Shown here in pieces: positions 1 to 18,216 of a DNA stretch of 64,000 nt; within the stretch, counting starts at the first letter, position 1, and every line of letters begins with the position of its first letter. This DNA comes from Candidatus Entotheonellaceae bacterium (GTDB lineage: Bacteria > Tectomicrobia > Entotheonellia > Entotheonellales > Entotheonellaceae). The notes under the pieces are model-generated. The model worked only from the letters and a program-made list of their open reading frames with translations, was not told the origin of the DNA and searched no databases. The position numbers and the translations under genes were made by a program. Location of the stretch: NCBI GenBank assembly GCA_965238075.1, contig OZ250173.1, forward strand, positions 3,288,322 to 3,352,321, read 5' to 3'.

Positions 1-205
1 GCTGGTGGCGATGGTCATGATGTTCAATCAGGTTGACGGGCGACTGGACTGCATGCAGACAGAGACAAACCCCCTCTTTGACCGCATGCAGACAGATACC
101 AACGCCCGCTTTGATGCGGTGCTTGAGGCGATTATGAGCTTCGACCGCCGGGTCTCGCGCATCGAACGGCGTTTCGATGCCCATAGCACCGGGGCCGCCG
201 AGTAG
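1..205 (+). CDS. Small membrane-anchored coiled-coil protein, 5' end cut by the window edge; paralog of 9372-9596
   Basis: ORF 5..205 with an internal repeat (DRMQT[E/D]TN-like) and C-terminus EAIMSFDRRVSRIExRxDAHSxGAAE shared with the ORF at 9372. Confidence 0.6.
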   Translation, partial: LVAMVMMFNQVDGRLDCMQTETNPLFDRMQTDTNARFDAVLEAIMSFDRRVSRIERRFDAHSTGAAE

Positions 206-415
206 GCATGCGGTCCCGCTGGCGGATTGGCGACCGCGGCTCGCGGCCGCTTAGAACTCCCCAACTGGCTGCCAAAAGAGGGCTGATGATACGGTTGACG
301 TCCCACCGATTGCGGGCGAAATCGCCCCTTTCGCAACTTCCGGTGGGGCGTTCTGGAGTTCTCCGCGGCAAAATGGCGTAAGTCCAGCATCCACGCGGGT
401 TTCCGGTGATGCTAA
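206..415 (+). repeat. Conserved non-coding leader, copy 1
   Basis: Near-identical by eye to 9597-9806 (CATGCGGTCCCGCTGGCGGATTGGCGACC...CCGGTGATGC); lies directly before the first dif-like site. Confidence 0.9.
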
Positions 416-443
416 AGTTTACACATAGAGACTTATCAGAAGT
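416..443 (-). other. dif-like XerC/D site 1
   Basis: + strand AGTTTACACAT-AGAGAC-TTATCAGAAGT (11-6-11). Confidence 0.75.
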
Positions 444-459
444 TGAAGGGAGAAATCTC

Positions 460-750
460 ATGAGTGTATTCGCGCATCTGGTCACTTCTATGGGGTGGGG
501 TGAACCTGAGGCGACGCAGGCCTTGGCTTATATCCTCCGCCAACAACCCGGCATTCTTCGGGCGTTCGTCAGCTTGCTCGGCGCGGCAGGCGTCACATTC
601 AACCCCGGACGCATTGAGTTTGATGATAATGAGGTGTATTTGCCGGGCAACGACAAATACCTCCCCATCCGCCTCAAACCTGGTGTTGAGCGAGAGAGGG
701 TAGTTGAGGACGCGGTTGAGCAGATCCGCGCTGCTGTGTTCGGAGGTTGA
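460..750 (+). CDS. Cassette ORF, hypothetical protein, possibly internally deleted
   Basis: GGAG RBS then ATG just after site 1; its TGA stop lies inside site 2. Confidence 0.55.
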   Translation: MSVFAHLVTSMGWGEPEATQALAYILRQQPGILRAFVSLLGAAGVTFNPGRIEFDDNEVYLPGNDKYLPIRLKPGVERERVVEDAVEQIRAAVFGG

Positions 751-773
751 CATAAGACGGGATTATCCGAAGT
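745..773 (-). other. dif-like XerC/D site 2
   Basis: GGTTGACATAA-GACGGGA-TTATCCGAAGT (11-7-11). Confidence 0.75.
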
Positions 774-901
774 TGAGCGGGTATGACCTGCGCGGGGAAC
801 CAGCTCCTTTTTTTCCGGTTGACTTGCCGATTGAACATAGAAGATATTGGCCGCCGCTCAGGCACTTCGTCCTTGAATCATCAAACGAAAGGGGGTCCGT
901 T

Positions 902-1077
902 ATGCGCTGGATCGTGGTTTTGACGGTGCTCGCGGCGGGGCCACGATTGCCGAAGCACAGGCATTTCAAGGAATTGTGATGGATGATGGCAATCGAAGCG
1001 TGACGTTCTCCAACTCGATGCTGGAGATCGGCTCCGATACGCTGAACAATCTCAGAGTCTGGCCCAAAATAAGTTGA
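902..1077 (+). pseudogene. Frameshifted remnant of a secreted protein
   Basis: MRWIVVLTVLAAG continues in another frame as ATIAEAQAFQGIVMDD..., giving a signal peptide with an AEA cleavage site; purine-rich RBS upstream. Confidence 0.35.
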
Positions 1078-1299
1078 GCGATTTCGGTAGGTTGTGATTC
1101 GCTGGCATGACCAAGCCGCCACTGGCGAATCCCAAAGGACATCGGGACGACCGTTAATACCGCCCAAACGTGGCTCCTTCATCACCAGCGCAGATCTTCT
1201 CGTCTTTGGATTGGTAGAGCTATGAAAAACAATGCCTTATTTCGGGACGAACTCTTAACAAGGTTATATTTACGGACACTACACTCTAGGGGTTGACCG

Positions 1300-2229
1300 A
1301 TGCGCGAGAGGATGATAACGGATGAGATCCGCATGAGCGACGGCGCACCCATTATCCTGCGGAGGCTCGGGAACCCCAAGGGCTTGCGGCTTGTGGTCAG
1401 TCACGGCAACGGCTTGGCGGTCGACGCCTATGAGTCGTTCTGGAGGCTGCTCTCGGACCGGTTCGATCTGATCCTCTACGACGTCAGGAACCACGGGCGG
1501 AATCCGGTGGGAGATCTCGCCGCGCACAACATGGCCCAACTGATCGACGACACCGTGACTGTCGCGCAGGCCATCGACCGGACGTTTGGCCGACGGCCGC
1601 GGGTCGGTGTCTTCCACTCGTTGGCCGCTCTCCTGTGCCTGTTGCCGGGCGCGGAAGCGCACGGCTATGCGGGCCTGGTGCTGTTCGATCCGCCGGTGGC
1701 GCCGGATGCGGACTCGGCGAGCCGCCTGCTGAAGATGAGGCGGAAGCGGGTCGAGCAGGCGCGGCAGCGGCAGGCGGACTTCGACACGTGGGAGGATCTG
1801 GCGGACGTCTACCGGAGCGCCGCGCCGTTTCGCTTGCTGCCGCCGAGAGCCGTCGAGCGGCTCGCGCAGGCAACGCTCCGGCCGCGCGGGCCGACGGGCT
1901 TCACGCTCTGTTGTCCGCCTGCGTTCGAAGCCAAAATATACGAGGAGAGCATCGCTTGGTCAACGCGCGTTGACTTCGACCGTATCCGGTGTCCCGTAAG
2001 GGTAATCGGCAGCGATCCGGTGCTCCCCTTCTCGTTCCTTCCAAGCGTCGATCTGAACGAGATCGTGAAGCTGGACTACGATTTCCTGCCCGATGCAACG
2101 CACTTCCTGCAACTCGAGAAGCCCGGGGAGTGTGCGCTGTTGGTGCGGGACTTCCTCGACACCCTGGAGAGCGACCGATGCAGGGGCGCAACAGCGGACC
2201 TGGCCGGCGGCGGGCCGGAGACATCGTGA
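1300..2229 (+). CDS. Alpha/beta hydrolase (thioesterase-like)
   Basis: SHGNG, YDVRNHGR, nucleophile elbow VFHSLA, C-terminal ATHFLQLE. Confidence 0.85.
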   Translation: MRERMITDEIRMSDGAPIILRRLGNPKGLRLVVSHGNGLAVDAYESFWRLLSDRFDLILYDVRNHGRNPVGDLAAHNMAQLIDDTVTVAQAIDRTFGRRPRVGVFHSLAALLCLLPGAEAHGYAGLVLFDPPVAPDADSASRLLKMRRKRVEQARQRQADFDTWEDLADVYRSAAPFRLLPPRAVERLAQATLRPRGPTGFTLCCPPAFEAKIYEESIAWSTRVDFDRIRCPVRVIGSDPVLPFSFLPSVDLNEIVKLDYDFLPDATHFLQLEKPGECALLVRDFLDTLESDRCRGATADLAGGGPETS

Positions 2230-2359
2230 ACCGGACTCGCCTTGGGGCCTTCCATCGGGGAACCTTCAGGCAGCAGACCTGCGACCTGCGGCCTGTCGGT
2301 GGTAAGCCGAACCGCCGGTCACCTGCCACGGGGCCGGAAGTGCTGTGAGGTGGATTCGC

Positions 2360-3408
2360 ATGCGGACACCGCCGGAACGTGAACGAGGGGAACCTCAGGT
2401 GTCGTTGGCGTTCTCACAGATGATCATGGGGGCTTGGGTGCCCCAGGTCATCTATACCGCAGTCTCGCTCGGGGTCTTCTAGAACCTCCACGCCGGGCCG
2501 CGTTCCGGCGCCGAGATAGCAAACGAGATTGGTGTTCCGCTCGCGACCACGAATCGGCTGCTGCGCGCCCTCGTTTGCCTCGAATTGTGCAGCGCGTCCG
2601 AGTCCGACACCTTCGCACTCATGCCGGGGGGACGATTACTTTGCGCGGAGACGCCGGGCTCGATGCGCTCGCTGGCGCTGCTCCGGGGCCGAGGGAGCGT
2701 CTGGTCGGCGTGGGGCAGGCTGCTGGACGTTGTTCGCACGGGGAAAACGGCTCCGGAGCTGGTCGCCGGGAAAGGCATCTACGAGTGGCTGGCCGACGAT
2801 CCGGCCGGTTTCAATGTCTTCAACCAGGCGATGACGGAGCTGAGCATCGCCCAGGCGTAGGCGGTCCCGATGCCTTTGACTTTTCGGATGCCCACGTCAT
2901 CGTGGATGTCGGTGGGGGCTACGGTGCGCTCCTCATGGCGATACTCATGAGGTACGGCGACGCCAGCGGCGTCGTCTTCGATCGCTCCACGTGCCGTGAG
3001 GGATCGGAACGGTTGATCGCGCAGACCGGACTGTCGGATCGCTGCAGGTTCGTCGGTGGCGACTTCTTCAAGTCGGTGCCCGTGGGGGGCGACATATACC
3101 TGCTCAAGAACGTGATCCACAATTGGGACGACGATTGGAGCATGACCATCCTGCGAACCTGCCGCACGGCCATGAGCGGAGATTCACGCCTGCTGCTGAT
3201 TGAGCCGATCGTGCCCGAACAGATCACCGCGTCGCTCGCCGACACTGTAGTGGTCGCATTCGATTTGCATATGCTGCTGTTGACCGGCGGTTGCGAACGC
3301 ACCGAAGAGCAGCATCGGTCGCTGTTGCAGGCAGCCGGGTTCGACGTGATGCGCATCGTGCCGACATCGTCGGCGCTCAACCTGATCGAGGCGCGCCAGA
3401 CGGCTTGA
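2360..3408 (+). pseudogene. SAM-dependent O-methyltransferase (dimerisation + Methyltransf_2), disrupted
   Basis: In-frame TAG at 2480, TAG at 2858 plus a frameshift; motifs VDVGGGYG, FVGGDFF, KNVIHNWDD, GCERT. Confidence 0.85.
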
Positions 3409-3439
3409 CTCGGCATTGTCGAACAAGAGCCATTGTGAA

Positions 3440-3592
3440 GGATGTGTTGAAACTTTCAAATGGTGGCAAGAGTGCGATGGGTCGAGTCGACCGGGTTCCA
3501 TCTCATGCAGCCACCTCGAACAGCTTGTTGATGAACTGAATCTGTTGCCGAAGATCCGAACCGCTCACCCACCGCGCTTGCCCCTTCCGGAT
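3440..3592 (-). mobile_element. IS6-family remnant (transposase C-terminus plus terminal IR)
   Basis: Minus-strand IRKGQARWVSGSDLRQQIQFINKLFEVAA*; IR-like GGATGTGTTGAAACTTT at 3440. Confidence 0.65.
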
Positions 3593-3839
3593 CTGGCGGC
3601 GGCCCTGGGCCTGAACGGCCTCGGGGGCTTCGGAGGCTTCGCGGGCGGCGGCGGGGACGCGCCGATGGGCGGCACGGAGTTCCTGTTCGCGTGGGGCGGG
3701 GCTGGCAGTTCTGGGGCCAGGGCGACATCCAGACGTTCGCGGGCGAGCCGGCGGTCGAGCGGCGCTACGAGGGCGGCATGCGCCTCGAAACCGAGCTGAC
3801 GGCCATGCATCCCTACCTGGGCTGGTCGAACGGGGCCAC

Positions 3840-3948
3840 GTCGGTGTGGACGAAGTCGGCGGCGCAGATCCTCGAGAAGGTGGACCGAGCCCGGAAGGCC
3901 CTCGCCGCCGTCTCCCGCATAGGAGGCTGTGTTCGGACACTACACTAG
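3840..3948 (+). mobile_element. IS630-family remnant (transposase C-terminus and right end)
   Basis: VWTKSAAQILEKVDRARKAL...RTLH* ending in ACACTAG. Confidence 0.6.
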
Positions 3949-4013
3949 ATATCATGCTAGGATGGACTCGACATGCGGCGACCGTCAAGTTCGCCGCCAG
4001 GGGGAATGATGAC

Positions 4014-4301
4014 ATGGCAGCCTACGTGATCATGGATATCGAGGTAACCGACCCTACCAGCTACCGTGGTTTTCTGGAGCAGGCGGCGGCAACGGTTGCA
4101 GCGCACGGCGGCAAGTATCTCGTGCGCGCCGGCGCCACGACAGTCCTGCAGGGCAACTGGCAACCTCATCGCCTCGTGGTGGTGGAGTTCGACAGCGCCG
4201 AGCAGGCGAGACAATGGAGAAACTCGCCGGACGCCACTCACGCCAGAGAGATGCTCAACAGGTCGTCCAACACGAACATGATAATTGTCGAGGGCGATTA
4301 A
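4014..4301 (+). CDS. DUF1330 family protein
   Basis: MAAYVIMDIEVTD...HGGKYLVRAG...LVVVEFDS; 95 aa. Confidence 0.9.
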   Translation: MAAYVIMDIEVTDPTSYRGFLEQAAATVAAHGGKYLVRAGATTVLQGNWQPHRLVVVEFDSAEQARQWRNSPDATHAREMLNRSSNTNMIIVEGD

Positions 4302-4456
4302 CGCCGCGCTACGGTGGGCGGACCGGTTGTGGTGCAACTTTGGCCGACGGCGGCTGGTAACCGGAAGAGATCATGAAAAAAGACAATCCGACTGGCGATC
4401 TTCAAGTGGCGACAGACGCGGCCGCGGGTGCTGCCGCTGGTAATCAGGTGAATGCG

Positions 4457-5722
4457 ATGAGCCGCGCTCAGCGCTACGACTGCGCGGTCATCGGCGGCGG
4501 GCCCGCGGGCGCGACGGCGGCGACGGTGTTGGCACAGCACGGCCGGCGCGTGGTGGTCATCGAGCGCGAGCGCTTTCCGCGCCACCACGTCGGCGAATCG
4601 CTGATGCCGTACACTTGGTTTACGTTCGAGCGGCTCGGCGTGCTCGACTGGTTCACGGAAGCCGCCTGTCCTCAGAAATACAGCGTGCAATTCGTCCCGA
4701 CCTCCGGCAAGGTGTCGCAGCCATTCTATTTCTTCGAGACCATCAAGCACCCTTGCGCCACCACCTGGCAGGTGCTTCGCAGCGACTTCGACCGGATGCT
4801 GCTCGACAACGCGCGCGCCAAGGGCGTCGAGGTGCGCCAGGGGGCGGTGGTCCGCGAGGTGCTCATGGAAGGCCAGCGCGCCGTCGGTGTCCGGGCTGAC
4901 CTAACCGGGGGCGGATCCGAGACGTTCTCGGCCGACGCGGTGATCGACGCGTCCGGACGCAACTCGTTCCTGGCCTCCAGGCTCGGCATGAAGCGGCGCG
5001 ACCCCGACCTGAACAAGATCGCCATATTCACCTACTACCGCGGCGCCCGGCGCGACCCAGGGCTCGACGCGGGAGCCACCACCGTCGCCTACATCCCGCA
5101 CAAGGGCTGGTTCTGGTACATCCCGCTGCCGGACGACATCGTCAGCGTCGGCGTCGTGGCCGAGAAGGACTATCTCTACCGCGACACGCGCGACCCCGAG
5201 GACATCTTCGCACGCGAGGCGGCGGCGTGCATCTGGATCGAGGACCACCTGCGGCCGGGAACGCGCGTCGAGCCGGTGCGCGTCACCGGCGAGTTCAGCT
5301 ACCGGGCCGAGGCTATCGGGGGGGACGGCTTCTGTCTGGCGGGCGACGCGTTCTCGTTCCTCGACCCGGTCTTCTCGACCGGCCTGTTCATGGCGCTCAA
5401 GAGCGGGGAGATGGCGGCGGACGCCGTCCACCAGGGTCTCGACAGCGGCGGGGTTACCGCCGCGACGTTCGAGGAGTACGGGCGCCAGATGCGCTGGGCG
5501 CTCGACCAGTTCCGGCAGCTCGTGCTGTCGTTCTACAATGAGCGGTTCAGCTTCCGCGAGTTCATCCGCGCCTACCCGGACATGCACCCGCGGCTGGTCG
5601 ACGCGCTGGTCGGCAACGTTTTCTCCGATCTCGGTCCGCTGATCGACGCGCTCCGCGACTTCTTGGCGCGGGAGCCATCGACCGGCGCCTCGGCGATCGA
5701 CCCGCCGGCTGTCAGCGCCTAG
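4457..5722 (+). CDS. Flavin-dependent halogenase-family FAD oxidoreductase
   Basis: GGGPAG, FPRHHVGES, WFWYIP (WxWxIP), GDAFSFLDPVFSTG; an upstream start at 4373 is also possible. Confidence 0.85.
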   Translation: MSRAQRYDCAVIGGGPAGATAATVLAQHGRRVVVIERERFPRHHVGESLMPYTWFTFERLGVLDWFTEAACPQKYSVQFVPTSGKVSQPFYFFETIKHPCATTWQVLRSDFDRMLLDNARAKGVEVRQGAVVREVLMEGQRAVGVRADLTGGGSETFSADAVIDASGRNSFLASRLGMKRRDPDLNKIAIFTYYRGARRDPGLDAGATTVAYIPHKGWFWYIPLPDDIVSVGVVAEKDYLYRDTRDPEDIFAREAAACIWIEDHLRPGTRVEPVRVTGEFSYRAEAIGGDGFCLAGDAFSFLDPVFSTGLFMALKSGEMAADAVHQGLDSGGVTAATFEEYGRQMRWALDQFRQLVLSFYNERFSFREFIRAYPDMHPRLVDALVGNVFSDLGPLIDALRDFLAREPSTGASAIDPPAVSA

Positions 5723-6064
5723 CAGCCCGTGGAAGAAACGGGTCTCCAGAGCGTCAGGTGGCGGAAGGGGGCCAGCACCCAGGCGGCGGTGAGTTTGTGC
5801 CGACGGCGGGTTTTGCAGCTTGAAGACCCGGCGATCGGGCTGAAAAGGCCAATATGACGGCGAAAGTGGCGAAGAATGTGCAGAAAACGGTGCTGACATG
5901 ACCCGCGAGCGCCGCTTGCGCCGCGGCGAGCCCCTGCAGAGCCCGCGGGGTGCCAAAACGTGCGTGCGGCGGCAGCCCGGCCAACCGCTGGCCGCGGTCG
6001 GCAGCCCGCCGGAAATCGTCCGACGCCTACGCGCCGCGAACGACGGCTCCGGGACGGACGCTCC

Positions 6065-7384
6065 ATGACCCGGGACGCCGGGGCGGTTCCAGCAACCGAG
6101 CGGCTGCCGCGCGAGACGCTGGCCGCGCTTCAAGGCGAGCGCCTGACACGGCTGCTCGGCTATATCCACGCACGGAACCGGTTCTACACCCGCAAACTGA
6201 CGGATGCGGGCATCGATCCCGCGCAGCTTGTCCTGCCGCGTGATCTCGCCGCGCTGCCCTTCACCACCAAGGCGGAGCTGGTGGCCGATCAGGCCCAGGC
6301 GCCGCCGTGGGGCACCGTGCTTACCGAGCCGCTCGTGCGCTACACCCGTTACAACCAGACCTCGTCCACGACCGGCCGACCGCTGCGCTGGCTCGACACG
6401 ACGGAGAGCTGGCAATGGATGCTCGACTGCTGGCAGGCGGTCTACCGCGGCGCCGGCGTCGGCGCCGACGACCGCATCATCTTCCCGTTCTCGTTCGGAC
6501 CGTTCCTCGGATTCTGGACGGCGTTCGACGCGGCCACCCAGCTCGGGGCGCACGCCATTCCGGCCGGCGGGATGACGAGCCACCAGCGACTCGCCCTGAT
6601 TAGGTCGCTGGCGCCCACCGTGGTCTGCTGCACGCCGACCTACGCGCTGCGGCTGCTCGACGTGGCGCGCGAGGCGGATGGCGTCGACAACGCGCTGGCC
6701 GATACTGCCGTCCGCACCGTCATCGTCGCCGGCGAGCCGGGCGGCAGCATTCCGGCCACGCGCCAGCGGATCGAGCGCGGCTGGGGGGCGCGGGTCATCG
6801 ACCACCACGGGTTGACCGAGGTCGGCCCCATCAGTTTCGAGTGCCGGGAGGCCCCGGGGTTCCTGCACGTCAACGAACGCGAGTACATCGCCGAGATGCT
6901 CGACCCGGAGTCGGGACAGCCGGCGGCGGACGACAGCCGCGGCGAGCTGGTCATCACGAACCTCGGGCGCACCGCCAGCCCGTTGATCCGCTACCGTACG
7001 GGCGATCTGGTCGTCGCGACGCACGAGCCGTGCGCCTGCGGGCGTACGTTCGTGCGCCTCGTGGGCGGCATTGTGGCGCGCGCCGACGACATGGTCAACA
7101 TCCGCGGGACGAACGTCTATCCGACTGCCGTCGAAGAGGTTCTGAGCGCAATCGACGCAGTAGTCGAGTACCGCTGCACGGTGCGGACGGCAGCCTCGAT
7201 GCGCGCGCTCGCCGTGGAGGTCGAGGTGGGCCGCGGCGCCGATGAGGCCGCGGTGACGGCGCTGGTGTCGCAAAACCTGCGGAAAGCGCTCGGCCTGAAC
7301 GTCCAGGTCACGCCGGTCGCCGCCGGCACGCTGCCGCGCTTCGAGATGAAGGCGCGCCGATTTGTCGTGGAACGCAGTTCATAA
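6065..7384 (+). CDS. Phenylacetate-CoA ligase (PaaK)-family adenylating enzyme
   Basis: LPFTTKAEL, TSSTTGRP, DHHGLTE, PLIRYRTGD, RADDM, RFEMKARR. Confidence 0.9.
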   Translation: MTRDAGAVPATERLPRETLAALQGERLTRLLGYIHARNRFYTRKLTDAGIDPAQLVLPRDLAALPFTTKAELVADQAQAPPWGTVLTEPLVRYTRYNQTSSTTGRPLRWLDTTESWQWMLDCWQAVYRGAGVGADDRIIFPFSFGPFLGFWTAFDAATQLGAHAIPAGGMTSHQRLALIRSLAPTVVCCTPTYALRLLDVAREADGVDNALADTAVRTVIVAGEPGGSIPATRQRIERGWGARVIDHHGLTEVGPISFECREAPGFLHVNEREYIAEMLDPESGQPAADDSRGELVITNLGRTASPLIRYRTGDLVVATHEPCACGRTFVRLVGGIVARADDMVNIRGTNVYPTAVEEVLSAIDAVVEYRCTVRTAASMRALAVEVEVGRGADEAAVTALVSQNLRKALGLNVQVTPVAAGTLPRFEMKARRFVVERSS

Positions 7385-7399
7385 TCTGAAGCGTCGTAA

Positions 7400-7612
7400 C
7401 ATGCTGGGGCTCCGCGCGCCGGACAGGCAAACCCCGCCAGAACCTCGTAGCGGTCCTGGGCGTAGGCATGACGAAAACCGTGTGTGCCGTTCAGCCCGAT
7501 GCTCTTGCGGGGACTCTGCCACAGGCCGTCACGGTAGTCTTTGTACGACAGCGACGACGGGATCAGCGAGCCCTTGCCCGCCACCGCCTTGGCATGGTCC
7601 AGGGCCTTGCGC
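7400..7612 (-). pseudogene. Tyrosine recombinase/integrase fragment
   Basis: GSLIP...THGFRHAYAQDRYEVLAGFACP carries the HxxR catalytic box; cut off upstream at the ISKra4 element. Confidence 0.7.
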
Positions 7613-7637
7613 GGGAGCACCAAAAAGTGTGGGACAG

Positions 7638-9027
7638 TCAGGCAGCGCGTGGTTCAGCTTCAGCTGACCTGTCCCCGGCCTTCATTCCCGGGTACCACTG
7701 CTCGAACTTCTCCCTGAGCGTGCCGTCGAGGGTCCGCGTCCGGACTTGCAGCATGAGATGCGCCCCGCCTTTCGACCACCGCATCTGCTGACGCTTGCCA
7801 AACCGTTTGCCGACAACCGTGTTGATGGCACTCTCCACAAACCGTGGAAACGCGCTCGCCGTAGCGCCGCCGTTCGGCATAGTTGGGAATCAAGCCCGCG
7901 TTGCTGCGGATGTAGGTATCGAACTCGCCGGCAGCTTTCCTGAGTGCCTTCATGCCCGGGTAGTCGGTCTTGATGCCTTCCAGATCCAAGACGAGTTCCG
8001 TGATCGCACGACGGCCGTCGTGCAGATTCCCATTCCACAGGCCGCCTTTGATGCGGCGCAGAAGCCGATCCACGGCTTCCGCTTCATCCGAATTTGAGTG
8101 GCTCAGCCCTCTGACATACTGGCGCATGACGGTGATGCGCATGGTGATGTAGAACCAGTCGAGCAGGTGCTCGGACGCCGGGGCCATGTAACGCGCCATG
8201 TTCCTGACCGTGTCGCCGCCATCGGTCAGGTGACAGGCTGGTTTTCCTGCCATCCCTGCTCCTTCAGGACCTCGTGCAGCCGCCGCCGTGGCCGGGTGTC
8301 GTGGGACTGCACGAGACCGAGGTAACGGTTTGGCTTGTCCACGGGCATGGACTTGGCGACCATGACCTCGAAGTGCGTGTTCCTTGTCCCGCGAGCGCAC
8401 ATAGCCGCCATCGATTCCGACCGTGATGGAGTCTTCCGGCAGCGGCATGGCGGCCCGCTCCTGCGGGCACGTTTCGATGAAGAAGAACTGTTCATCTGCC
8501 AGTTCGCCTTCCATGCGTTTGGCCGCCATGTGAAGATGGTTACGCACGGTCTCGGCGCTCAGGCCCTCGCCGATGGGCAGGACATCCTTGAGAAGATGGG
8601 TCGCGGCGCCGAACGAGACCAGCGAGGCCCACCTGGTTTCCAGCCACAGCAGTTCCGGTGCCGTGTGGTCCGGAGGCAAGTCGTTCAGAGGGCTGAAGGT
8701 GTTTGGGCGACGGCCGTCGCAGGCACATTGGCAATACCGCGGGCTTGTGACTGAGATATCACCGAAGACCATGCGGTAACGGATGGCGCGGCTGCCCTTT
8801 TTGCGCAGCCGCAGACCGCAGCCAGGACAGACCGACTTCGAGGCGCAGTATGCCTCCGCCTGGGCCGTAACGATCTCGTGTTGCAGGGACTTCAGCAGTG
8901 CTTTGCCTTCGGCGATTGACAGGCCGGTCTCTTCGTGCCGATCATGTCCCTTGTCGAGAATGATGACCTCGCGCTCCCGTATCTCACCGTCCGGGGTTGT
9001 CACGCGTAGGGTGATCTCGAATTTCAT
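7638..9027 (-). mobile_element. ISKra4-family transposase, frameshifted
   Basis: GLSIAEGK, CPGCG, VGIDGGYVR, LTDGGDTV, HLLDWF, FVESAINTVVGKRFGKRQQMRW spread over three frames. Confidence 0.85.
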
Positions 9028-9240
9028 GGCTGTCCTCCCCAGGCAAGGGGTTTTCCAGAATCCGGGGAGAGGAAAATCCGCGTTTCACTGGATGGCGTTT
9101 TCTGCCATGCCATGGCGTCGGATTGCCCTCTTCGGTCCTCATCTTTGTTTTCGGCCTTTGAGTAGTAATGGAACAGAAAACTGTGTTAAGCCTTGCTGAG
9201 TTGACGGCCGGCGTCTTTCGGTGAGCCAGTGTCGTTGGCG

Positions 9241-9372
9241 TCATTGAGCTCGGGGAATGAGATGGCGAGAGCGCATGAAATGATAGAGCGTTGAGCGATC
9301 TACCCCGGTGATCTTGGCAATCAACGCCTTTGAGACCTTGAGGTCCAGGAGCCTTTGAATTTCGTCTTCCTT
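9241..9372 (-). pseudogene. C-terminal HTH of a serine resolvase/invertase (not in the ORF track)
   Basis: Translated by hand: KEDEIQRLLDLKVSKALIAKITGVDRSTLYHFMRSRHLIPRAQ*. Confidence 0.65.
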
Positions 9373-9596
9373 TGGTGGGTTTGTTCGTGGCGATGGTTAC
9401 CCTGTTCAACGGTGTCGACGCGCGCGTCGACGCCTTGAACGACCGCATGGACCGCATGCAGGCTGAAACCAACCTGGGCTTTGAAGCCGTCAATGCACGC
9501 TTCGACAAGGCTTTTGAGGCGATCATGAGTTTTGACCGCCGGGTCTCCCGCATTGAAGGGCGTCTCGATGCCCATAGCGCCGGGGCCGCCGAGTAG
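9372..9596 (+). CDS. Small membrane-anchored coiled-coil protein, probably 5' truncated
   Basis: Hydrophobic VGLFVAMVTLF followed by heptad-like DRMDRMQAETN...; paralog of 1-205. Confidence 0.6.
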   Translation: MVGLFVAMVTLFNGVDARVDALNDRMDRMQAETNLGFEAVNARFDKAFEAIMSFDRRVSRIEGRLDAHSAGAAE

Positions 9597-9806
9597 TCAT
9601 GCGGTCCCGCTGGCGGATTGGCGACCGCGGCTCGCGGCCGTTTAGAACTCCCCAACTGGCTGCCAAAAGAGGGCTGATGATACGGTTGACGTCCCACCGA
9701 TTGCGGGCGAAATCGCCCCTTTCGCAACTCCCGGTGGGGCGTTCTGGAAGTCTCCGCGGTAAAATGGCGTAAGGCGAGCATCCACGGGGGTTCCCGGTGA
9801 TGCGAA
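9597..9806 (+). repeat. Conserved non-coding leader, copy 2
   Basis: Direct repeat of 206-415. Confidence 0.9.
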
Positions 9807-9835
9807 AGTTTACATATAATCGTCTTATCGGAAGT
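9807..9835 (-). other. dif-like XerC/D site 3
   Basis: AGTTTACATAT-AATCGTC-TTATCGGAAGT; reverse complement ACTTCCGATAA-N7-ATATGTAAACT. Confidence 0.8.
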
Positions 9836-9896
9836 TGGATATTCCTAGGTGCCGTAGTGGATATAGACCTTATATCTGGAACTAAGTGAGGTATTG

Positions 9897-10714
9897 ATGA
9901 CTGATTTTGCGACTGATGGGTTTTTGAGCGATGAGATATTACGATACGAGAGTCAGCACATCGATACTCTGACGAACTGGACCTGGCTAAAAGCGTCAAT
10001 CGAGTTGCCCATACTGCAATCCGGTCGATACGGATCGATCGGACTCAATCAAGCGTGCTTCTTCTGGCATCTCTGCTGGTGCGTCAAGTAGAGACGTTCC
10101 AAGCCTTCTTAATCCTCATCGGAAAGGGTCTCATTCCTCAGTCTGCAATACTTCTGCGAAACATGGCAGAGTCGATGTTCATTGTGGGGGCTATCGGTAA
10201 AGATCAGACCTTTGCAGAAAGCTACATCCAGTCTGAGGATTTACCTCGCCTGAAGGTCCTCAGAAAATTAAGGGAAACCAGTCTGCGTAGGGGCAATGCA
10301 CCAGATCCGGAACTGGATACCTCAATTGGAGAGCTTGAGAAAAAAACTGGGAAGGGAAAAATCTGGCAGACGATAGAAATAGCCAAAGTTGCTGAGTTGA
10401 CCGACTATTACGACACCCTGTATCGGTTTATGAGCATGACGGTACACACGTCGCCACGAAGCCTAAACGAAATACTTGTCGTAGGTTCAAATGGTGACGT
10501 CGAAGCATTGAACTACGCACCCAAGGTGGAGAATCTTGAGGTCCACCTTGCATGTGCAATAGACATGATGTCTTACACGCTACACGAAATAGCAACCCAT
10601 TTCTCGCTTGACCCTGCGCGAATAGGGCTTGAAGAAGTGCACCAAAGACTTCGAACCCTCGACATCCCTTTTGCCATGGAGAAACACGGGCATAAACCTC
10701 ACCGCCAAGGGTGA
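9897..10714 (+). pseudogene. Cassette gene, DUF5677-like protein, frameshifted near the 5' end
   Basis: ORFs 9894 and 10055 join; AILLRNMAES and YDTLYRFMSMTVH; TGA stop inside site 4. Confidence 0.65.
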
Positions 10715-10736
10715 CATATAAGGGCTTATCGGAAGT
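10709..10736 (-). other. dif-like XerC/D site 4
   Basis: GGGTGACATAT-AAGGGC-TTATCGGAAGT. Confidence 0.75.
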
Positions 10737-10754
10737 TGGGGGAGGAGTATCTGA

Positions 10755-11451
10755 ATGAGTGATGGCAACTTGAATCCAGAAACGACCCTGCAACAGGCTT
10801 TGGATCGATCCCTGGTCATACAGGAACAGATCAACACGCTTTTGAATGACCCTGGGCTTTTCATTCCCTCTCTGCCAACGAACAAGCAAACGCAGATCGC
10901 CTGTGGCTTGTTCGGCCTCACGATCGACCAAGCTTGGAGTGTTACCCTTGAACCTTGGAGTGTTACTCCAGAACGAACGATATGGTGCAGCTTTGGCGCT
11001 GACACGCCCTGTTCTCGAAGCCTGCTGCAGGGGGAAATGGATCAGATACCATGCAAAAAAGAGAACCATTGAGACCTTCTCATCCAACAATTTTCCCGAC
11101 ACGCCCTCTCTCATCAAGAAGACAATGAGCCGTGTTGCTGGCCTTAACGGGGGAGCGGATGACTTTGTCTTAAATGTCTACCGATGGCTAAGCGACTACA
11201 CGCATGGCGGGGTTCGCATGCTCAGGATGCAACTGTCCGAGACCGGCGTCGCCTCAGAGTACAACTTGGAAGAAGTGAGAAAAGCTCTGATGGTATCAGA
11301 CGTGATGCAGATACAAGCAGCTAGCGAATTGCTCGACTTCGCCCGGTGCAAAAACGACAACGACTGCCAATCATTGAGAGGAACACACAACCAGTGCAAG
11401 CGGTTTCAAGCTGATATGGAAAAAATACGCCATCTTCTGAAGTTGCTATAG
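10755..11451 (+). pseudogene. Cassette gene, DUF6988/DUF5677-like protein, frameshifted near 10930-10970
   Basis: GGAGG RBS; YGAALALTRPVLEACCRGKW and LSDYTHGG; local duplication CTTGGAGTGTTAC at 10933 and 10954 near the frame change; TAG overlaps site 5. Confidence 0.6.
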
Positions 11452-11477
11452 ACGACATAAAACGGCTTATCAGAAGT
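11450..11477 (-). other. dif-like XerC/D site 5
   Basis: AGACGACATAA-AACGGC-TTATCAGAAGT. Confidence 0.75.
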
Positions 11478-11530
11478 TAGGGGGATAACCCTCAGAACGC
11501 GAAGAATGTGACCAAAATAAGGAGAAGCCG

Positions 11531-12868
11531 ATGAGTGCAGCAGCAGAAAGCAACACAAGGAACGTTCTGGAAAAAATAAGTGAGGTAGTAAAACAATCAG
11601 CCGATGGCGACTACATCTTTCGTGGCGAACCTAAACACTATCCCAAAGTGTCATCGAGCCTTTACCGCCAGTACCCTGAGGTTGAGACGGAACATTTCGA
11701 TATAGAGGTTGTCCAAAGAGAACTTTTGCAGGAGGCGAAAAGACATGCAGATGAACCCGACGACTTTGAAATCCTGACCCAACTCCAACATTATGGCGGC
11801 GACACAAACCTTATTGACTTTACGGCTGACTTTCTCATAGCTCTGTTCTTTGCCTGTGACAGGCACTTCGACATGGATGGCAGAGTGATCCTGCAGCGAA
11901 GGGAACCGATCGAAGATCAACTGAAGGAACCTCGTCACCCAAGAAATCGCGTCATCTCTCAGAGAAGCATATTCATTCAACCGCCAAAGGGCTTCATTGA
12001 GCCAGACCATGTTGTCTTAATCCCAAAAGACCTTAAACAGCCCATTTTAAACCACTTGCGAAAGTACCATGGCTTATCCAATGCAACCATCTACAACGAT
12101 CTTCATGGGTTTATCACCAATCAACGCAACCATAAGAGTGCTTATAGGGAGTTTTACAGAGGTCTTACCTGCCAGGAGAAAGGCAATCATGACAAAGCGA
12201 CACATCATTACACCAAGGCCATTGAACTGAATCCGAACCTTGCTGCCGCCTACAACAACCGCGGTATTGCCTACGGGAAAAGAGGCGAGCTTGACCGAGC
12301 CATCGAAGATTGCACCAAGGCCATTCAACTGAATCCGAACCTTGCTGAGGCTTACAGCAACCGCGGTACTGCCTACCAGAATAAGGGCGAACTTGGCCGA
12401 GCCATCGAAGACTACACCAAGGCCACTGAACTGAATCCGAACCTTGCTGAGGCTTACAACAGCCGCGGCGCTGCCTACCAGAATAAAGGCGACCTTGGCC
12501 AAGCCATCGAAGACTACACCAAGGCCATTGAACTGAATCCAAATCATGCTGAGGCTTACAACAACCGCGGCGTTGCCTACGGGAATAGAGGCGAGTTTGG
12601 CCCGGCCATCGAAGACTACAACAGGGCCATCGAACTGAATCCAAATTATGCTGAGGCTTATTACAACAGCGGCATTACTTTGTTATCGCGGGAAGAATGG
12701 GACAGGGCCAAATCAAAGTTATGTACTGCCGAGAACGAGGGAATAGATATCATCGCTGCGTTTCAGAGTGAGTACAAAAGTGTTACAGATTTCGAGAGTC
12801 AACATGGCGTGGATGTGCCCAAAGACATCACAGCAATGCTAACGCCAAGAGAGGGCGCGTCAGGTTGA
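11531..12868 (+). CDS. Cassette gene, FRG-domain plus tetratricopeptide-repeat protein
   Basis: YIFRGE, LQHYGGDTNLIDFT, IALFFAC, RVISQRSIF, then 34-aa TPR repeats; TGA inside site 6. Confidence 0.9.
   Translation: MSAAAESNTRNVLEKISEVVKQSADGDYIFRGEPKHYPKVSSSLYRQYPEVETEHFDIEVVQRELLQEAKRHADEPDDFEILTQLQHYGGDTNLIDFTADFLIALFFACDRHFDMDGRVILQRREPIEDQLKEPRHPRNRVISQRSIFIQPPKGFIEPDHVVLIPKDLKQPILNHLRKYHGLSNATIYNDLHGFITNQRNHKSAYREFYRGLTCQEKGNHDKATHHYTKAIELNPNLAAAYNNRGIAYGKRGELDRAIEDCTKAIQLNPNLAEAYSNRGTAYQNKGELGRAIEDYTKATELNPNLAEAYNSRGAAYQNKGDLGQAIEDYTKAIELNPNHAEAYNNRGVAYGNRGEFGPAIEDYNRAIELNPNYAEAYYNSGITLLSREEWDRAKSKLCTAENEGIDIIAAFQSEYKSVTDFESQHGVDVPKDITAMLTPREGASG
12209..12670 (+). repeat. 102-bp tandem coding repeat (TPR)
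   Basis: Units start at 12209, 12311, 12413, 12515 and 12617 (consensus TACACCAAGGCCATTGAACTGAATCC). Confidence 0.9.
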
Positions 12869-12891
12869 CATAACGCGGGGTTATCAGAAGA
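12863..12891 (-). other. dif-like XerC/D site 6
   Basis: GGTTGACATAA-CGCGGGG-TTATCAGAAGA. Confidence 0.75.
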
Positions 12892-13071
12892 TGGGACGAG
12901 GTAGCTGCTGCTGGGATAACGGCTGATGAGATAAACACCGTACCTGTAAAGCTCCGCGAGCTTCTTCGTACACCACACCGTTACTGCTATACCCACCGCC
13001 TGTCTCCGCTATCCATCCCTCCCGTCTGAAAAATGCAGGCACCTACGCGCAAAGACTGATTGGCGTCTTCC

Positions 13072-14394: not shown

Positions 14395-14906
14395 GCCATC
14401 TCCTTTCCCAGCACCACGAACAGGTTCTTGAGCGTCGCCGAAACTCCCTGTAAAGCCACCAGCGCGAAGGCGACCGGAATGACGGTTTTCAGGATGTAGC
14501 GCGCCGGAATGCCGCCGGGGTCAGGTGAGCCCTCCATGACCGACCAGGAATTGACCACAAAAGGGATTGACGTCCAGATCAGCAAGAAACAGGTGGGAAA
14601 GAGGAACAGAATGCCGAAGACGAGCTCGACCCAGGCTTTCGCGTGCGGCGACAGGTTGGCGTGCACGATATCGACCCGTACATGGTCGCCCTTGAGGTGC
14701 GTGTACCCGGCGGCGATCAGGAACAGGACGGCGAACAGGTGCCACTCCAGTTCCTGGATGAAGACGTAGGTGATGTCGAACAGGTAGCGCATGACCACGT
14801 CATAGGTGGTCACCAGGACCATGATGAGGGTGAGCCAGGCAACGTTTTGGCCTACCTTTTCGTTCAGGCGGTCGATTCCGCGCACTACGGCGGAAAGAAA
14901 ATTCAT
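14391..14906 (-). CDS. dctQ: TRAP transporter small permease
   Basis: ELEWHLF, HVRVDI, EGSPDPGG; overlaps dctM. Confidence 0.92.
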   Translation of the reverse strand: MNFLSAVVRGIDRLNEKVGQNVAWLTLIMVLVTTYDVVMRYLFDITYVFIQELEWHLFAVLFLIAAGYTHLKGDHVRVDIVHANLSPHAKAWVELVFGILFLFPTCFLLIWTSIPFVVNSWSVMEGSPDPGGIPARYILKTVIPVAFALVALQGVSATLKNLFVVLGKEMA

Positions 14907-15096
14907 GCCGTCTCCCCTTCCCTATCGGGTTCACGGTCCGTTCAGGTGGCAGACTTGCGGGTCCCGGAATGCCCTGCATTATACGCGAAAGCGGCGCCGG
15001 GGGCGCATTGACTGCCCCATGGGGCTGCGCTACCCTGCCCGCCTGCCGCCCACCCCTCGCTACGGGCGGCGCCTGGGTCCTCAAGGAGCTCCTCCC

Positions 15097-18000
15097 GTGG
15101 CTTTCTACGCCGACCTGCACGTGCACTCCAAATACTCACGCGCCACCAGCCGCAACTGCGACCTCGAACACTTGGCGCTGTGGGCTCGCAAGAAGGGCAT
15201 CACCGTCGTCGGCACCGGTGACTTCACCCATCCGGCCTGGCTGGCGGAGCTCAAAGACAAACTGGTCCCCGCGGAGCCTGGACTGTTCCGCTTGCGGCCG
15301 GATCTGGAACGGACCGTTGCCGGCCGCCTGCCGCGTGCCTGTCATGGACCTACGCGCTTCATGTTGTCGGTTGAGATATCGACGATTTACAAGAAGGGTG
15401 AGACGACCCGCAAAATCCATCATCTCATCTACGCGCCCGACTTTGCGACCGCTGAGGGGGTGAATGTCCGCCTCGGCAAGATCGGCAATCTGAATTCCGA
15501 CGGGCGGCCCATTTTGGGTCTGGATTCGCGCCACCTCCTGGAGGTCGCCCTGGAATCCGGCCCCGGCGCGTATCTCGTGCCCGCCCATATCTGGACGCCG
15601 TGGTTTGCCGCCCTGGGCTCGAAGTCCGGTTTTGACTCGATTGATCTGTGCTACGCTGATCTGGCGCCGCACATTTTTGCCGTGGAGACCGGCCTGTCGT
15701 CAGACCCGCCGATGAATTGGCGGGTGTCGTCTCTGGACCGCTTTCGGTTGGTTTCCAACTCGGATGCTCACTCGCCTGAAAAACTGGGCAGAGAAGCTTG
15801 CGTGTTTACCAGTGATCTGGACTACTTTGCTATCCGCAGGGCTTTGGAGACCGGCCGGGGATACGCGGGGACCGTCGAGTTCTTCCCGGAAGAGGGCAAG
15901 TACCACCTGGACGGACACCGTTCTTGCCAAGTGCGGCTGTCGCCCCGCGAGACCCGTGCCGCCGGGGGCACCTGCTCGGTGTGCGGCAGGGCGCTCACGG
16001 TTGGCGTGATGCACCGCGTGGAAGCGTTGTCCGATCGTATGGACGACGCGCCGCCTGCCACGGCCGGCAGCGTGCAGAGCCTCGTGCCGCTGCCCGAAGT
16101 GCTGTCGGAACTCCACCAGGTCGGCAGCAAGAGCAAGCGCGTGAGCCACCACTATGAACAGTTGCTGGGTCAGCTCGGACCCGAGTTGCCGCTGCTTACG
16201 GAAGTGCCGCTGGAGGACATTCGCCGTGTGACGTCATCGCTGTTCGCCGAGGCGATCACGCGCCTGCGCCAGCACCGCGTCATCCGGGATGCCGGCTACG
16301 ACGGCGTCTACGGGACGATCCGGCTTTTTCACGCCGACGAATTGCGCCGCCGCACCGTCGGGGCGTCCTTGTTTGCGGATGCCACGGCGCCGACTGCGGT
16401 CCCGGCGGACAACCGCTCGCCGGCCGTTCCCATCATGCAGGAGCCGGCACCTCACCCCGGTGCGAGGGCGCAGGAAGCACCGGTTGCCTACCCACAAAGA
16501 AATGAGGCCGTCCCTGAGCTGGATGCAGACCAACGACGAGCCGTCGAGGCCGGGACGGGTCCCATCCTGATCGTGGCCGGGCCCGGCTCCGGCAAAACGA
16601 GGACCTTGACTCATCGGATCGCCCATATCGTTCGCCAACGTGGGGTGCCGGCGGCCCAATGCCTAGCCCTTACGTTTACCCGGCGCGCCGCGGACGAGAT
16701 GCGTTCTCGTCTGAAAACTATGCTCCCGGACGTCTGTGAACAGATCCCGATCTTCACGTTTCATGCCTTGGGACTTTCCATTCTCCAGGAACATGGGAAC
16801 GCGGCCGGCTTGCAGCGCGGCTTTCGGATTGCGACAACGGTGCAATGCCTCGGTCTCCTGCAGAAGGCGTTGGAGGTTTCCGAGACACAAGCGCGTCGCC
16901 TGCTGGCGGCGATCTCGCATGCCAAGCGGACCCAAACGGCACCCGAGGCGGCCAAGCTGGCGCATGCCTGCGAGACCTACGAGCGCGAATTGACCCTCCG
17001 CAACCTGGTGGACTATGACGACTTGGTCGGTTTGGCGGCCGACGTGCTGGAGGCCCAGCCAGACCTGCAGGTGTCTTATCGTCAGCGTTATCCCTGGGTG
17101 TATATCGACGAGTATCAGGACGTTGACGAGCAACAGGTGCGTCTGATCAAACAACTTGTGCCGGCAGATGGTAACGTATGCGCGATCGGGGATGCGAACC
17201 AGGCAATTTATGGCTTCCGGGGCGCCGACGTGCGCTTTTTCGAACGTTTTCAGGATGACTTCCCCAACGCGCAGGTGGTGCGATTGAAGCGCAATTATCG
17301 CTCCCAGCCCCACATCGTCGCGCTGTCCAGCAAACTCATGGCACAGTCGGCCTTTCAATCCGCATCCGTTTCCGCACGTGCTGTGGAGCCACGCCGTATC
17401 ATCCTGCATGAGGCCGCCAGTGAGGCAGCGGAGGCGGAATTTGTGGTCCGTACCGTTGAGCAGCTCCTCGGCGGTCATTCTTTTTTCTCAATCGATAGCG
17501 GGCGTGCCGCGGAGGCTGCGACGGACAATTTGTCCTTTGCGGACATTGCCGTGCTCTACCGCACGGAAGCCCAGGCGCCGGCACTCGTCAAGGCGCTGCA
17601 TCGCTCCGGCATGCCGTTCCAGCACCGTTCGCACCGTCTGCTCATCGACCATCCCGGCGTTGCCGCACTGGTCGATGCCTTGGTGCAGCGACATAATGCG
17701 GGCTCTCTGCATGAACAACTCACGGCTGCCGTCACGACGTATGGGTATAACGGGACAGATTGCCTCGAAGCATTCGACCTCTTGCAACCTCTGGCGACCG
17801 CGTGTGGAAACGACCTCGAACGATTTCTTGCCGAGCTAGCCTTGGGGACCCAAGTGGACACGTGGGACCCGCGAGCCGACCGCATCTCCCTGCTGACGCT
17901 CCACGCTGCCAAGGGCTTGGAATTCCCGGTCGTCTTCATCGTGGGATGCGAAGACGGCCTGCTGCCGCTTGTATGGGGTCAACGCAGCCAGGCAGACCTC

Positions 18001-18216
18001 GACGAAGAACGCCGGCTGTTCTACGTGGGGATGACGCGGGCCAAGACCCATTTGTATCTGTGCCACGCCCGCCAACGGCTCTGGCGCGGCCGCGTGCAAG
18101 CGCTGGCGGCCTCACCGTTCCTGGATGATCTCGAGGAAGGCTTTCTGGACCGACAACGTTTCCGGCTTCAGGGCGCCCGGTCAAGAACGCCGGACGCGCA
18201 ACTCAAGCTCTTCTGA
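15097..18216 (+). CDS. Endonuclease Q-like PHP domain fused to a UvrD/Rep helicase
   Basis: AAGGAG RBS + GTG; ADLHVHSKYS, GTGDFTHP, NSDAHS, Zn-finger Cys residues; AGPGSGKT, IDEYQD, TLHAAKGLEF, YVGMTRA. Confidence 0.9.
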   Translation: MAFYADLHVHSKYSRATSRNCDLEHLALWARKKGITVVGTGDFTHPAWLAELKDKLVPAEPGLFRLRPDLERTVAGRLPRACHGPTRFMLSVEISTIYKKGETTRKIHHLIYAPDFATAEGVNVRLGKIGNLNSDGRPILGLDSRHLLEVALESGPGAYLVPAHIWTPWFAALGSKSGFDSIDLCYADLAPHIFAVETGLSSDPPMNWRVSSLDRFRLVSNSDAHSPEKLGREACVFTSDLDYFAIRRALETGRGYAGTVEFFPEEGKYHLDGHRSCQVRLSPRETRAAGGTCSVCGRALTVGVMHRVEALSDRMDDAPPATAGSVQSLVPLPEVLSELHQVGSKSKRVSHHYEQLLGQLGPELPLLTEVPLEDIRRVTSSLFAEAITRLRQHRVIRDAGYDGVYGTIRLFHADELRRRTVGASLFADATAPTAVPADNRSPAVPIMQEPAPHPGARAQEAPVAYPQRNEAVPELDADQRRAVEAGTGPILIVAGPGSGKTRTLTHRIAHIVRQRGVPAAQCLALTFTRRAADEMRSRLKTMLPDVCEQIPIFTFHALGLSILQEHGNAAGLQRGFRIATTVQCLGLLQKALEVSETQARRLLAAISHAKRTQTAPEAAKLAHACETYERELTLRNLVDYDDLVGLAADVLEAQPDLQVSYRQRYPWVYIDEYQDVDEQQVRLIKQLVPADGNVCAIGDANQAIYGFRGADVRFFERFQDDFPNAQVVRLKRNYRSQPHIVALSSKLMAQSAFQSASVSARAVEPRRIILHEAASEAAEAEFVVRTVEQLLGGHSFFSIDSGRAAEAATDNLSFADIAVLYRTEAQAPALVKALHRSGMPFQHRSHRLLIDHPGVAALVDALVQRHNAGSLHEQLTAAVTTYGYNGTDCLEAFDLLQPLATACGNDLERFLAELALGTQVDTWDPRADRISLLTLHAAKGLEFPVVFIVGCEDGLLPLVWGQRSQADLDEERRLFYVGMTRAKTHLYLCHARQRLWRGRVQALAASPFLDDLEEGFLDRQRFRLQGARSRTPDAQLKLF

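Follow-up and report, generated by a model that had tools for sequence, protein, structure and literature searches.

What is the role of a non-coding leader that occurs twice in one stretch of a bacterial chromosome, each time directly ahead of a site resembling dif, the chromosomal Xer recombination site, and each time followed by different genes? The question arises from the final 64 kb (hereafter, the window) of a 3,352,321-base contig from a member of a group of uncultured sponge symbionts related to Entotheonella. An earlier note on the window had described a duplicated module, at 1-443 and 9372-9835, composed of a small open reading frame (ORF), a leader and a dif-like site, and had proposed that the leader is the fixed part of a system to which new cassettes are added at the adjacent site. 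To this we bring the genome holding the window (G000) together with the five others of a six-genome genus set (G001 to G005), an outgroup of eight genomes from five other genera of the same family, and RNA contigs from four metatranscriptome runs. The reading that we favor, and to which we give an even chance of being right, is an integron-like cassette platform that uses the host XerC and XerD at ectopic copies of dif, the leader being its fixed, transcribed part.

Both copies of the module, A and B in the lettering used for modules throughout G000 (where G denotes the true dif), were found at those coordinates. Copy A begins with the small ORF (1..205, starting 41 bases upstream of the window, ~82 residues, TAG stop at 203-205), followed by the leader (206..415; core match to a covariance model at 257-426), which carries the boxes CCCCAAC (259-265), TCCCACCG (301-308) and the inverted CGGTGGGG (341-348), and by the first site of the array (416..445), with a XerD-type arm AGTTTACACAT, the centre AGAGAC and a XerC-type arm TTATCAGAAGTT. 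Copy B has a small ORF of 74 residues (9372..9596), a leader (9597..9806; model match 9648-9818) and a first site (9807..9837; AGTTTACATAT AATCGTC TTATCGGAAGTT), and everything named in both copies is on the forward strand. A hairpin, GCATCCAC...GTGATGC, precedes both first sites as had been noticed before, at 387-412 in A and 9778-9803 in B. The leaders were identical at 199 of 210 positions without a gap (94.8%), whereas the ORF parts (1-205 and 9383-9596) agreed in 153 of 226 alignment columns, with 33 gap columns (67.7%), and the first sites in 25 of 31 bases. The likeness stopped at 445 and 9837, which are the final bases of the two dif-like sites, just where it had been said to end, and the 100 bases beyond (53 of 114 columns, 46%) were unrelated. 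The earlier observation that the non-coding part is better conserved than the ORF thus stands as a measurement and needs a correction in what it implies: the leader of copy A was closer to that of B (95%) than to its positional counterparts in G001 and G003 (~80%), so at least part of the extra conservation reflects recent copying between A and B, not selection alone.

Different cassettes follow the two first sites, again all on the forward strand. Array A holds a single cassette (446..743) with a Shine-Dalgarno sequence GGGAG and a 96-residue ORF (460-750) of no Pfam family, closed by a second, terminal site (744..775; GGTTGACATAA GACGGGA TTATCCGAAGTT). In array B, cassette B1 (9838..10708, GC 0.48) encodes an apparently frameshifted DUF5677 protein (9894-10091, 10055-10714) and is followed by a site at 10709..10738; cassette B2 (10739..11449) encodes a DUF6988-like protein (10846-11451), with an overlapping ORF (10755-11072) that starts 17 bases past the site, and is followed by a site at 11450..11479; and cassette B3 (11480..12861) encodes a protein with an FRG domain and TPR repeats (11531-12868) ahead of the terminal site at 12862..12893. 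Cassettes B1 (9894-10714) and B2 (10755-11451) each consist of two overlapping ORFs in different frames, and may therefore be frameshifted or decaying. The TPR units of B3 are encoded by a 102-base tandem repeat (12156-12665) whose copies are 76-80% alike.

The resemblance of these sites to dif exceeds chance. In the window, the two-arm pattern matched three times against 0.08 expected, and the right arm, allowing up to two mismatches, matched eight times against 2.25 expected, a count that none of 100 shuffles reached; a reversed-pattern control gave no match across all 17 genomes. Chance matches to a loose form of the pattern, at ~4680 in the window and downstream of module J, were set aside. 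In a dif or Xer core, a 6-base centre separates two 11-base arms that form a partial inverted repeat (PMC9226527, in part), and the platform and cassette sites are put together alike, their centres measuring 6 to 7 or 8 bases. The identity of the arms was assigned by eye from likeness to the Bacillus subtilis dif (PMC4578258, in part; the Escherichia coli and Staphylococcus aureus sites are given in part in PMC11040001): reversed, the leader-side arm matched the B. subtilis XerD arm at 11 of 11 bases, so the leader-proximal sites retain a full XerD-type arm, and the opposite arm matched the XerC arm at 8 of 11. As the earlier note had it, the left arm AAGTTTACA is confined to the two leader-proximal sites, and the other four sites of the window carry different left arms, namely GGTTGACA at 744-775 and 12862-12893, GGGTGACA at 10709-10738 and AGACGACA at 11450-11479. 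In the cassette sites the XerC-type arm TTATCNGAAGTT and the inner ACATAA are kept and the outer five bases of the XerD-type arm vary; a poor XerD arm is likewise described for the attachment site of phage TLC (PMC9226527, in part).

The true dif lies elsewhere in the chromosome. It is a 24-base sequence, AGTTTACATAA TATAAC TTATCAGAAGT, at G000:C1:3139041-3139064 (locus L041), present as one letter-identical copy in each of the six genus genomes; among the eight genomes from other genera of the family, five had exactly one dif match and three had none. The running sum of GGGNAGGG orientation peaked at 3,138,903, 140 bases from the site at 3,139,041, which identifies the latter as the chromosomal dif, while cumulative GC skew peaked ~200 kb beyond it (3.34 Mb). 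The leader-proximal sites have the same left (XerD-type) arm as the true dif. Matches to the dif-like pattern numbered 13 in G000, 14 in G001, 5 in G002, 23 in G003 and 4 in G005; the extra sites were found only in this genus and accompany leaders, G004 having the true dif alone and no full leader. The platform sites of the window are among the 13 matches of G000 and lie ~150 kb from the true dif, and are therefore dif-like sites, not dif. In G000, the 9 kb downstream of the true dif contained no second site. The true dif is located directly past a pnp-like gene, with xerD 20 kb away, and the idea that the leader is a copy of DNA beside dif was rejected, the upstream neighbor of dif being the unrelated end of that pnp-like gene.

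As for the recombinase, XerD (3118729-3119586; TIGR02225, 370 bits against a cut-off of 329.6) and XerC (818742-819644; TIGR02224, 337.2 bits against 335.15) are the only intact tyrosine recombinases in G000. One broken and one fragmentary member were also found, neither of them near a platform, and PF00589 had no match inside or beside the arrays. The platforms thus have no recombinase of their own and are most likely served by the host XerC and XerD.

The leader is repeated across the genome and the genus. Counted with a sequence-only covariance model, itself derived from 25 copies, it occurred at least 11 times in G000 (BLAST alone gave six matches in the contig), 17 times in G001, 5 in G002, 18 in G003 and 11 in G005, and as two partial copies in G004, for a total of 64; the same model found none in the eight outgroup genomes. 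A strict leader pattern, run against 185,579 species, each represented by one genome, recovered five stretches in three records, all of them Candidatus Entotheonella or Tectimicrobiota metagenome-assembled genomes, and two strict patterns had no match in JGI metagenome contigs. The earlier note had suggested tabulating what follows each copy, and the outcome was uniform: a dif-like site closes each of the 11 copies in G000 (eight by the loose pattern; those of K, L and M are degenerate and were recognized by eye), and behind seven of them, within 9 kb, come one to three more same-strand sites, at offsets of +324 (A), +896, +1637 and +3050 (B), +815 (C), +1894 (D), +2104 (F), +4261 (H) and +1828 (L). 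Sites in reverse orientation were absent from every module examined. The cassettes have a GC content of 0.44-0.54 compared with ~0.62, and among their cargo are DUF5677, DUF6988 and FRG with TPR proteins in array B and a DUF2971 protein in C; five of 14 cassettes have an ORF start 16-80 bases past the site. From likeness and ORF reading only, module J holds a protein similar to the C cassette protein. ORF reading likewise shows, in module F (L039), two halves of a relative of the DUF2971 protein of C split by a transposase-like ORF that has many copies in G001, G002 and G004, and, in module H (L040), a broken reverse-transcriptase-like ORF, so read, both are cassettes struck by other mobile DNA.

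That the leader stays while the cassettes change is clearest at the window locus, which is orthologous in G001, G003 and G005. The left flank and one ORF-leader-site unit are common to all, and the right flank is shared with G005 from 12862, the start of the terminal site of array B, and with G001 from 12923; the G003 contig stops within its array. Between these anchors the cassettes of the four species differ throughout. The locus spans 10.4 kb in G001, with three sites by the strict pattern and four by a looser one; G005 has three sites and G003 four, separating cassettes of 430, 194 and 211 bases. The G003 sites (L034; 12383, 12837, 13055 and 13288) enclose cassettes of 194-430 bases whose longest ORFs encode 51-97 residues, and some of these tiny cassettes are perhaps empty. 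G001 and G003 lack 446-9371, and G005 has most of the island between A and B and lacks 131-918, so copy B arrived with the island. At locus F, where G001, G004 and G005 have the same flanks, the leader is present in G001 and is followed by two other cassettes; unrelated DNA fills the interval in G004 (1.9 kb, with neither leader nor site) and in G005 (11.8 kb). Taken with the uniform presence of a site after each leader and with the RNA contigs described below, which come from a related strain and switch sequence after 445, these loci bear out the earlier proposal of a fixed leader with new cassettes at the adjacent site.

The same loci would also accommodate a reading, rather unlikely in our estimate, in which the leader is the relic end of an ancestral Xer-exploiting element, with no present role, and the arrays are successive insertions. 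A gene-end remnant with the motifs EYQDWLDNLP and EPPRGFGR lies ahead of the small ORF both ~200 bases upstream of the window (before the ORF of A) and in module E (G000 ~3,067,500-3,067,660), and no intact copy of that gene was found in G000. The island that has copy B as its right end is bounded on its left by the site at 744-775 and is absent from G001 and G003, the leader of locus F falls within a variable stretch, and between species the leader (~80%) is conserved no better than the flank (84%). A decaying relic fits poorly with copies of 66-74% identity that retain their length and boxes almost ungapped, with the leader at the A locus being fixed in four species while the cassettes to its right change, and with the lack of any dif-like site within 3 kb to the left of the leader in the seven modules examined. 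A known mobile-element end, such as that of an insertion sequence or miniature transposable element, had been named as what would undo the proposal; the module had no match in plasmid or phage collections and no Rfam family, and the leader was accordingly rejected as the end of a known plasmid or phage.

The RNA contigs carry the argument from a fixed leader to a transcribed one. Contigs over 1-445 were ~10-100 times deeper than most neighboring contigs, and the depth of bin 1-467 was 349-689 in the four runs, compared with 5-35 in most bins. In all four runs the contig departs from the window right past 445 and continues with identical foreign letters, so that the population sampled as RNA has a different cassette joined at the end of the site; other loose contig ends fell at 12862 and 9372. 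The stretch 9808-12609 had no RNA cover, which is uninformative given that this population carries other cassettes. We read these data as an ORF-leader unit that is strongly transcribed, and transcribed into the cassette if the RNA is from the forward strand. Since the RNA contigs also extend past the site into the next cassette, transcription is probably what the leader provides, as Pc does together with attI in integrons. Of the three roles offered earlier for the leader (cassette promoter, accessory-protein region or structured RNA), transcription is therefore the one that gains support, from contigs that are strandless; RNA folding gains none from covariation and a cer/psi-like accessory region fits poorly, as set out below. 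A contig break at ~258 in runs X1 and X3 was considered as a transcription start and rejected, A and B sharing exact words there, such that the break may be an assembly fork.

Within copy A, the depth in runs X1 and X3 was 101 and 132 over the ORF part and 628 and 662 over the leader part, a pattern in line with a leader that is itself a structured RNA, either a riboswitch-like regulator of the cassettes or a stable non-coding RNA. Also in favor of this are an 8-pair stem that is paired in 92.2% of cells, with a second copy of its box offering an alternative pairing, and local folding slightly better than that of shuffled sequences (mean z -0.9 inside the stem and -0.75 ahead of the site). The covariation analysis and Rfam search that had been proposed as a check went the other way: Rfam gave no match at gathering score in the 64-kb window and a chance-level one only (E 0.33) in E-value mode on 150-470, so that a known RNA family was rejected, and covariation in the stem was no better than in shuffles (286 of 500), with 20 unpaired against two compensated cells. 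RNAalifold returned the unvarying 8-pair stem alone from 19 sequences and nothing from 33, averaged pair probabilities supported that stem alone, a column-wise helix search yielded box stems and G-U noise only, and the whole-leader folding z-scores were -1.64 and -2.24. All leader copies come from one genus, so the power of the covariation test is low. Evidence for a folded RNA is weak, and we regard a structured-RNA leader as improbable.

The roughly fivefold greater depth over the leader than over the ORF in X1 and X3 would suit, too, a type I toxin-antitoxin-like pair of small ORF and leader that stabilizes variable islands, with proximity to the site being secondary; the ORF would then encode a small membrane protein kept in check by an abundant RNA that overlaps the 3' end of the ORF. 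The ORF product, ~82 residues with a hydrophobic N-terminal segment and coiled-coil-like repeats, and the many copies within variable islands are in line with such a pair. It had nothing above the Pfam cut-off, and its 63 homologs are all unnamed or hypothetical, one being labelled Tectomicrobia. In the comparison of seven of the 11 modules, however, the ORF was present in four, and the distance of the leader is fixed to the site and not to the ORF stop. A long coiled coil is atypical of type I toxins, and the RNA data are strandless. We consider this pair very improbable, the least likely of the readings weighed here.

More attention is due to the possibility that the leader acts as DNA, that is, as an accessory or architectural region that binds recombinase or host proteins and enables Xer recombination at an ectopic site without FtsK, in the manner of the accessory sequences of cer and psi or of the direct repeats at attI, its transcription being incidental; we think this somewhat unlikely, and it is compatible with the favored platform. 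The geometry of the leader suits protein binding on one DNA face as well as it suits RNA. The alignment is nearly gapless: of 25 copies, 20 have 170-173 bases between the first box and the arm, one has 162, and four have 183-184, owing to an 11-base insertion that equals one helical turn; one 7-mer occurs in two direct and one inverted copy, ~41 bases apart; and the inverted pair is conserved as sequence, changes in it mostly breaking the pairing. Accessory sequences also flank cer (PMC9226527, in part), and the earlier note had drawn an analogy to cer and psi. That analogy fits poorly: here the leader adjoins the XerD-type arm and is confined to the first site of each array, and at cer and psi accessory DNA adjoins the XerC arm and is required on both partners. 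The high RNA depth, moreover, is left unexplained by a DNA-only role. Nor is the leader a loading site for FtsK (FtsK-orienting polar sequence, KOPS), a candidate that was rejected: its box GGTGGGG shows no skew (358 leading, 300 lagging), the most skewed 8-mer of the genome being GGGCAGGG (217 against 94). A coding leader was rejected as well, on account of single-base gaps within the core of several copies.

We thus return to the integron-like platform, which would work as follows. A platform is an ectopic dif copy with a leader of fixed length fused on its left-arm side, often with a small membrane coiled-coil ORF ahead, and a cassette is a short unit that combines a ribosome-binding site with one or several ORFs and a dif-like site whose outer XerD-type half is blurred, such weakened-arm sites resembling the attachment sites of Xer-exploiting mobile elements. 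A circular cassette recombining at the platform site would land beside the leader, the platform would retain the good arm, and the weak site would trail its cassette, which is the order observed. Four parts of this scheme are inferred: exchange by Xer, movement of the cassettes in circular form, where the RNA starts and on which strand, and the promoter role. A bolder form, which we hold to be possible and rather doubtful, sees in these arrays a second, independent invention of the integron, in which ectopic dif copies, each with a conserved transcribed leader, recruit the housekeeping XerC and XerD in place of a dedicated integrase so as to gather promoterless cassettes and express them, and the leader, as DNA or as RNA, makes the site competent without FtsK.

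Several observations weigh against the integron-like platform. Neither circles nor an empty site were seen, and recombination was not observed. The differing spacers (6 against 7 or 8 bases) are awkward for a full two-strand Xer exchange. Homologs of cassettes B2 and B3 in other genomes have no flanking sites, so no cassette has been caught at two platforms, and the longest ORF runs in the direction of the leader in just 10 of 14 cassettes. The leader at locus F lies inside a variable stretch, which implies that platforms themselves are gained or lost, and the gene-end remnant before the small ORF in A and E hints at a mobile-element origin of the platform. As regards transcription, the RNA evidence consists of contigs from a single study, with one depth each and neither strand nor ends; the bin of copy B had a depth of just 0-12; other peaks were present at 1402-1868 (X1 only, 511.6) and at 3270-3736 (46-175, all four runs); and a scan for sigma-70-like promoters found none in the leader of A or B.

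The DNA around the arrays has contents of its own. The island between copies A and B (776..9371) encodes an alpha/beta hydrolase, an O-methyltransferase, a DUF1330 protein, a halogenase-like flavoprotein, an AMP-binding ligase, a recombinase-like remnant and a 455-residue ORF. Its part at 1300-7384, of high GC (0.62-0.71), comprises the genes from the hydrolase to the ligase, the flavoprotein being tryptophan-halogenase-like, and resembles a small set of tailoring or biosynthetic genes; G001 and G003 lack it at this locus. The RNA peak at 3270-3736 lies between the methyltransferase and DUF1330 genes. On the reverse strand, an ORF at 7385-7623 that overlaps the ligase gene starts with the stretch HGFRHAYAQ..Y, reminiscent of the catalytic end of tyrosine recombinases; Pfam gave no match for it, and it is thus probably a remnant. 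The 455-residue ORF (7660-9027, reverse strand) has CxxC pairs, matched no Pfam family at E 0.01, and may be a mobile insertion, given that G005 lacks 8103-8915. Beyond the arrays, a forward-strand gene at 14806-18216 encodes a UvrD-type helicase of 1136 residues with a ~570-residue N-terminal extension ahead of the helicase domain.

Both integrons and elements that exploit Xer are well known, and the system proposed here joins them. If host Xer runs the arrays, any bacterium could build gene-capture platforms by copying dif and a leader, and what activates an ectopic dif away from the terminus and FtsK becomes testable. The arrays also mark where the genomes of Entotheonella-related symbionts store strain-specific accessory genes. 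A full-text literature search, with most subscription journals outside its coverage, found no account of a chromosomal system in which small cassettes line up at ectopic dif copies, behind a conserved and transcribed leader and with no recombinase of its own.

Among known systems, integrons, and the sedentary chromosomal ones especially, are alike in having a fixed platform behind which short cassettes, most of them promoterless and each closed by a recombination site, form a variable array, in cargo of low-GC accessory genes (here DUF5677, DUF6988, FRG-TPR and DUF2971) whose content differs among close relatives, and in RNA that runs from the platform into the first cassette. As regards the platform promoter of integrons, what was observed here is deep but strandless RNA contigs that cross the site into the cassette, and no sigma-70-like match in either leader. 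Integrons differ from the arrays here in that, here, no IntI or any recombinase gene is present at the platform, the leader, often with the small ORF, taking the place of intI; in that the sites are double-stranded dif-like cores of ~30 bases, not folded attC hairpins; and in that a genome here has at least 11 platforms instead of one. Integrative mobile elements exploiting Xer (IMEX), namely the CTX, VGJ and TLC phages and the gonococcal island, share the lack of an own recombinase and a dif-mimicking site with a weakened arm (as in the TLC attP; PMC9226527, in part), and by successive insertion they likewise build up tandem, same-orientation arrays. Their target is the true dif, however, whereas the arrays here stand at ectopic, leader-bearing copies, and the units here are cassettes of 0.2-4 kb, not phages or islands, with no XafT-like gene recognized.

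In the pdif modules of Acinetobacter, the flanking sites are in opposite orientation and are mainly on plasmids. The array sites here are on the same strand as the leader, chromosomal and behind a leader. What the two have in common is small modules bounded by XerC/XerD-type sites, which for pdif are thought to be moved by the host Xer (PMC12907356 and PMC7399989, both in part). Finally, cer and psi combine a Xer core with a one-sided flank of ~200 conserved bases, as is seen here, and their accessory DNA is located at the recombining sites and bound by accessory proteins (PMC9226527, in part); the leader here, by contrast, stands beside the XerD-type arm of the first site only, and the role proposed for it is gene capture, not dimer resolution.

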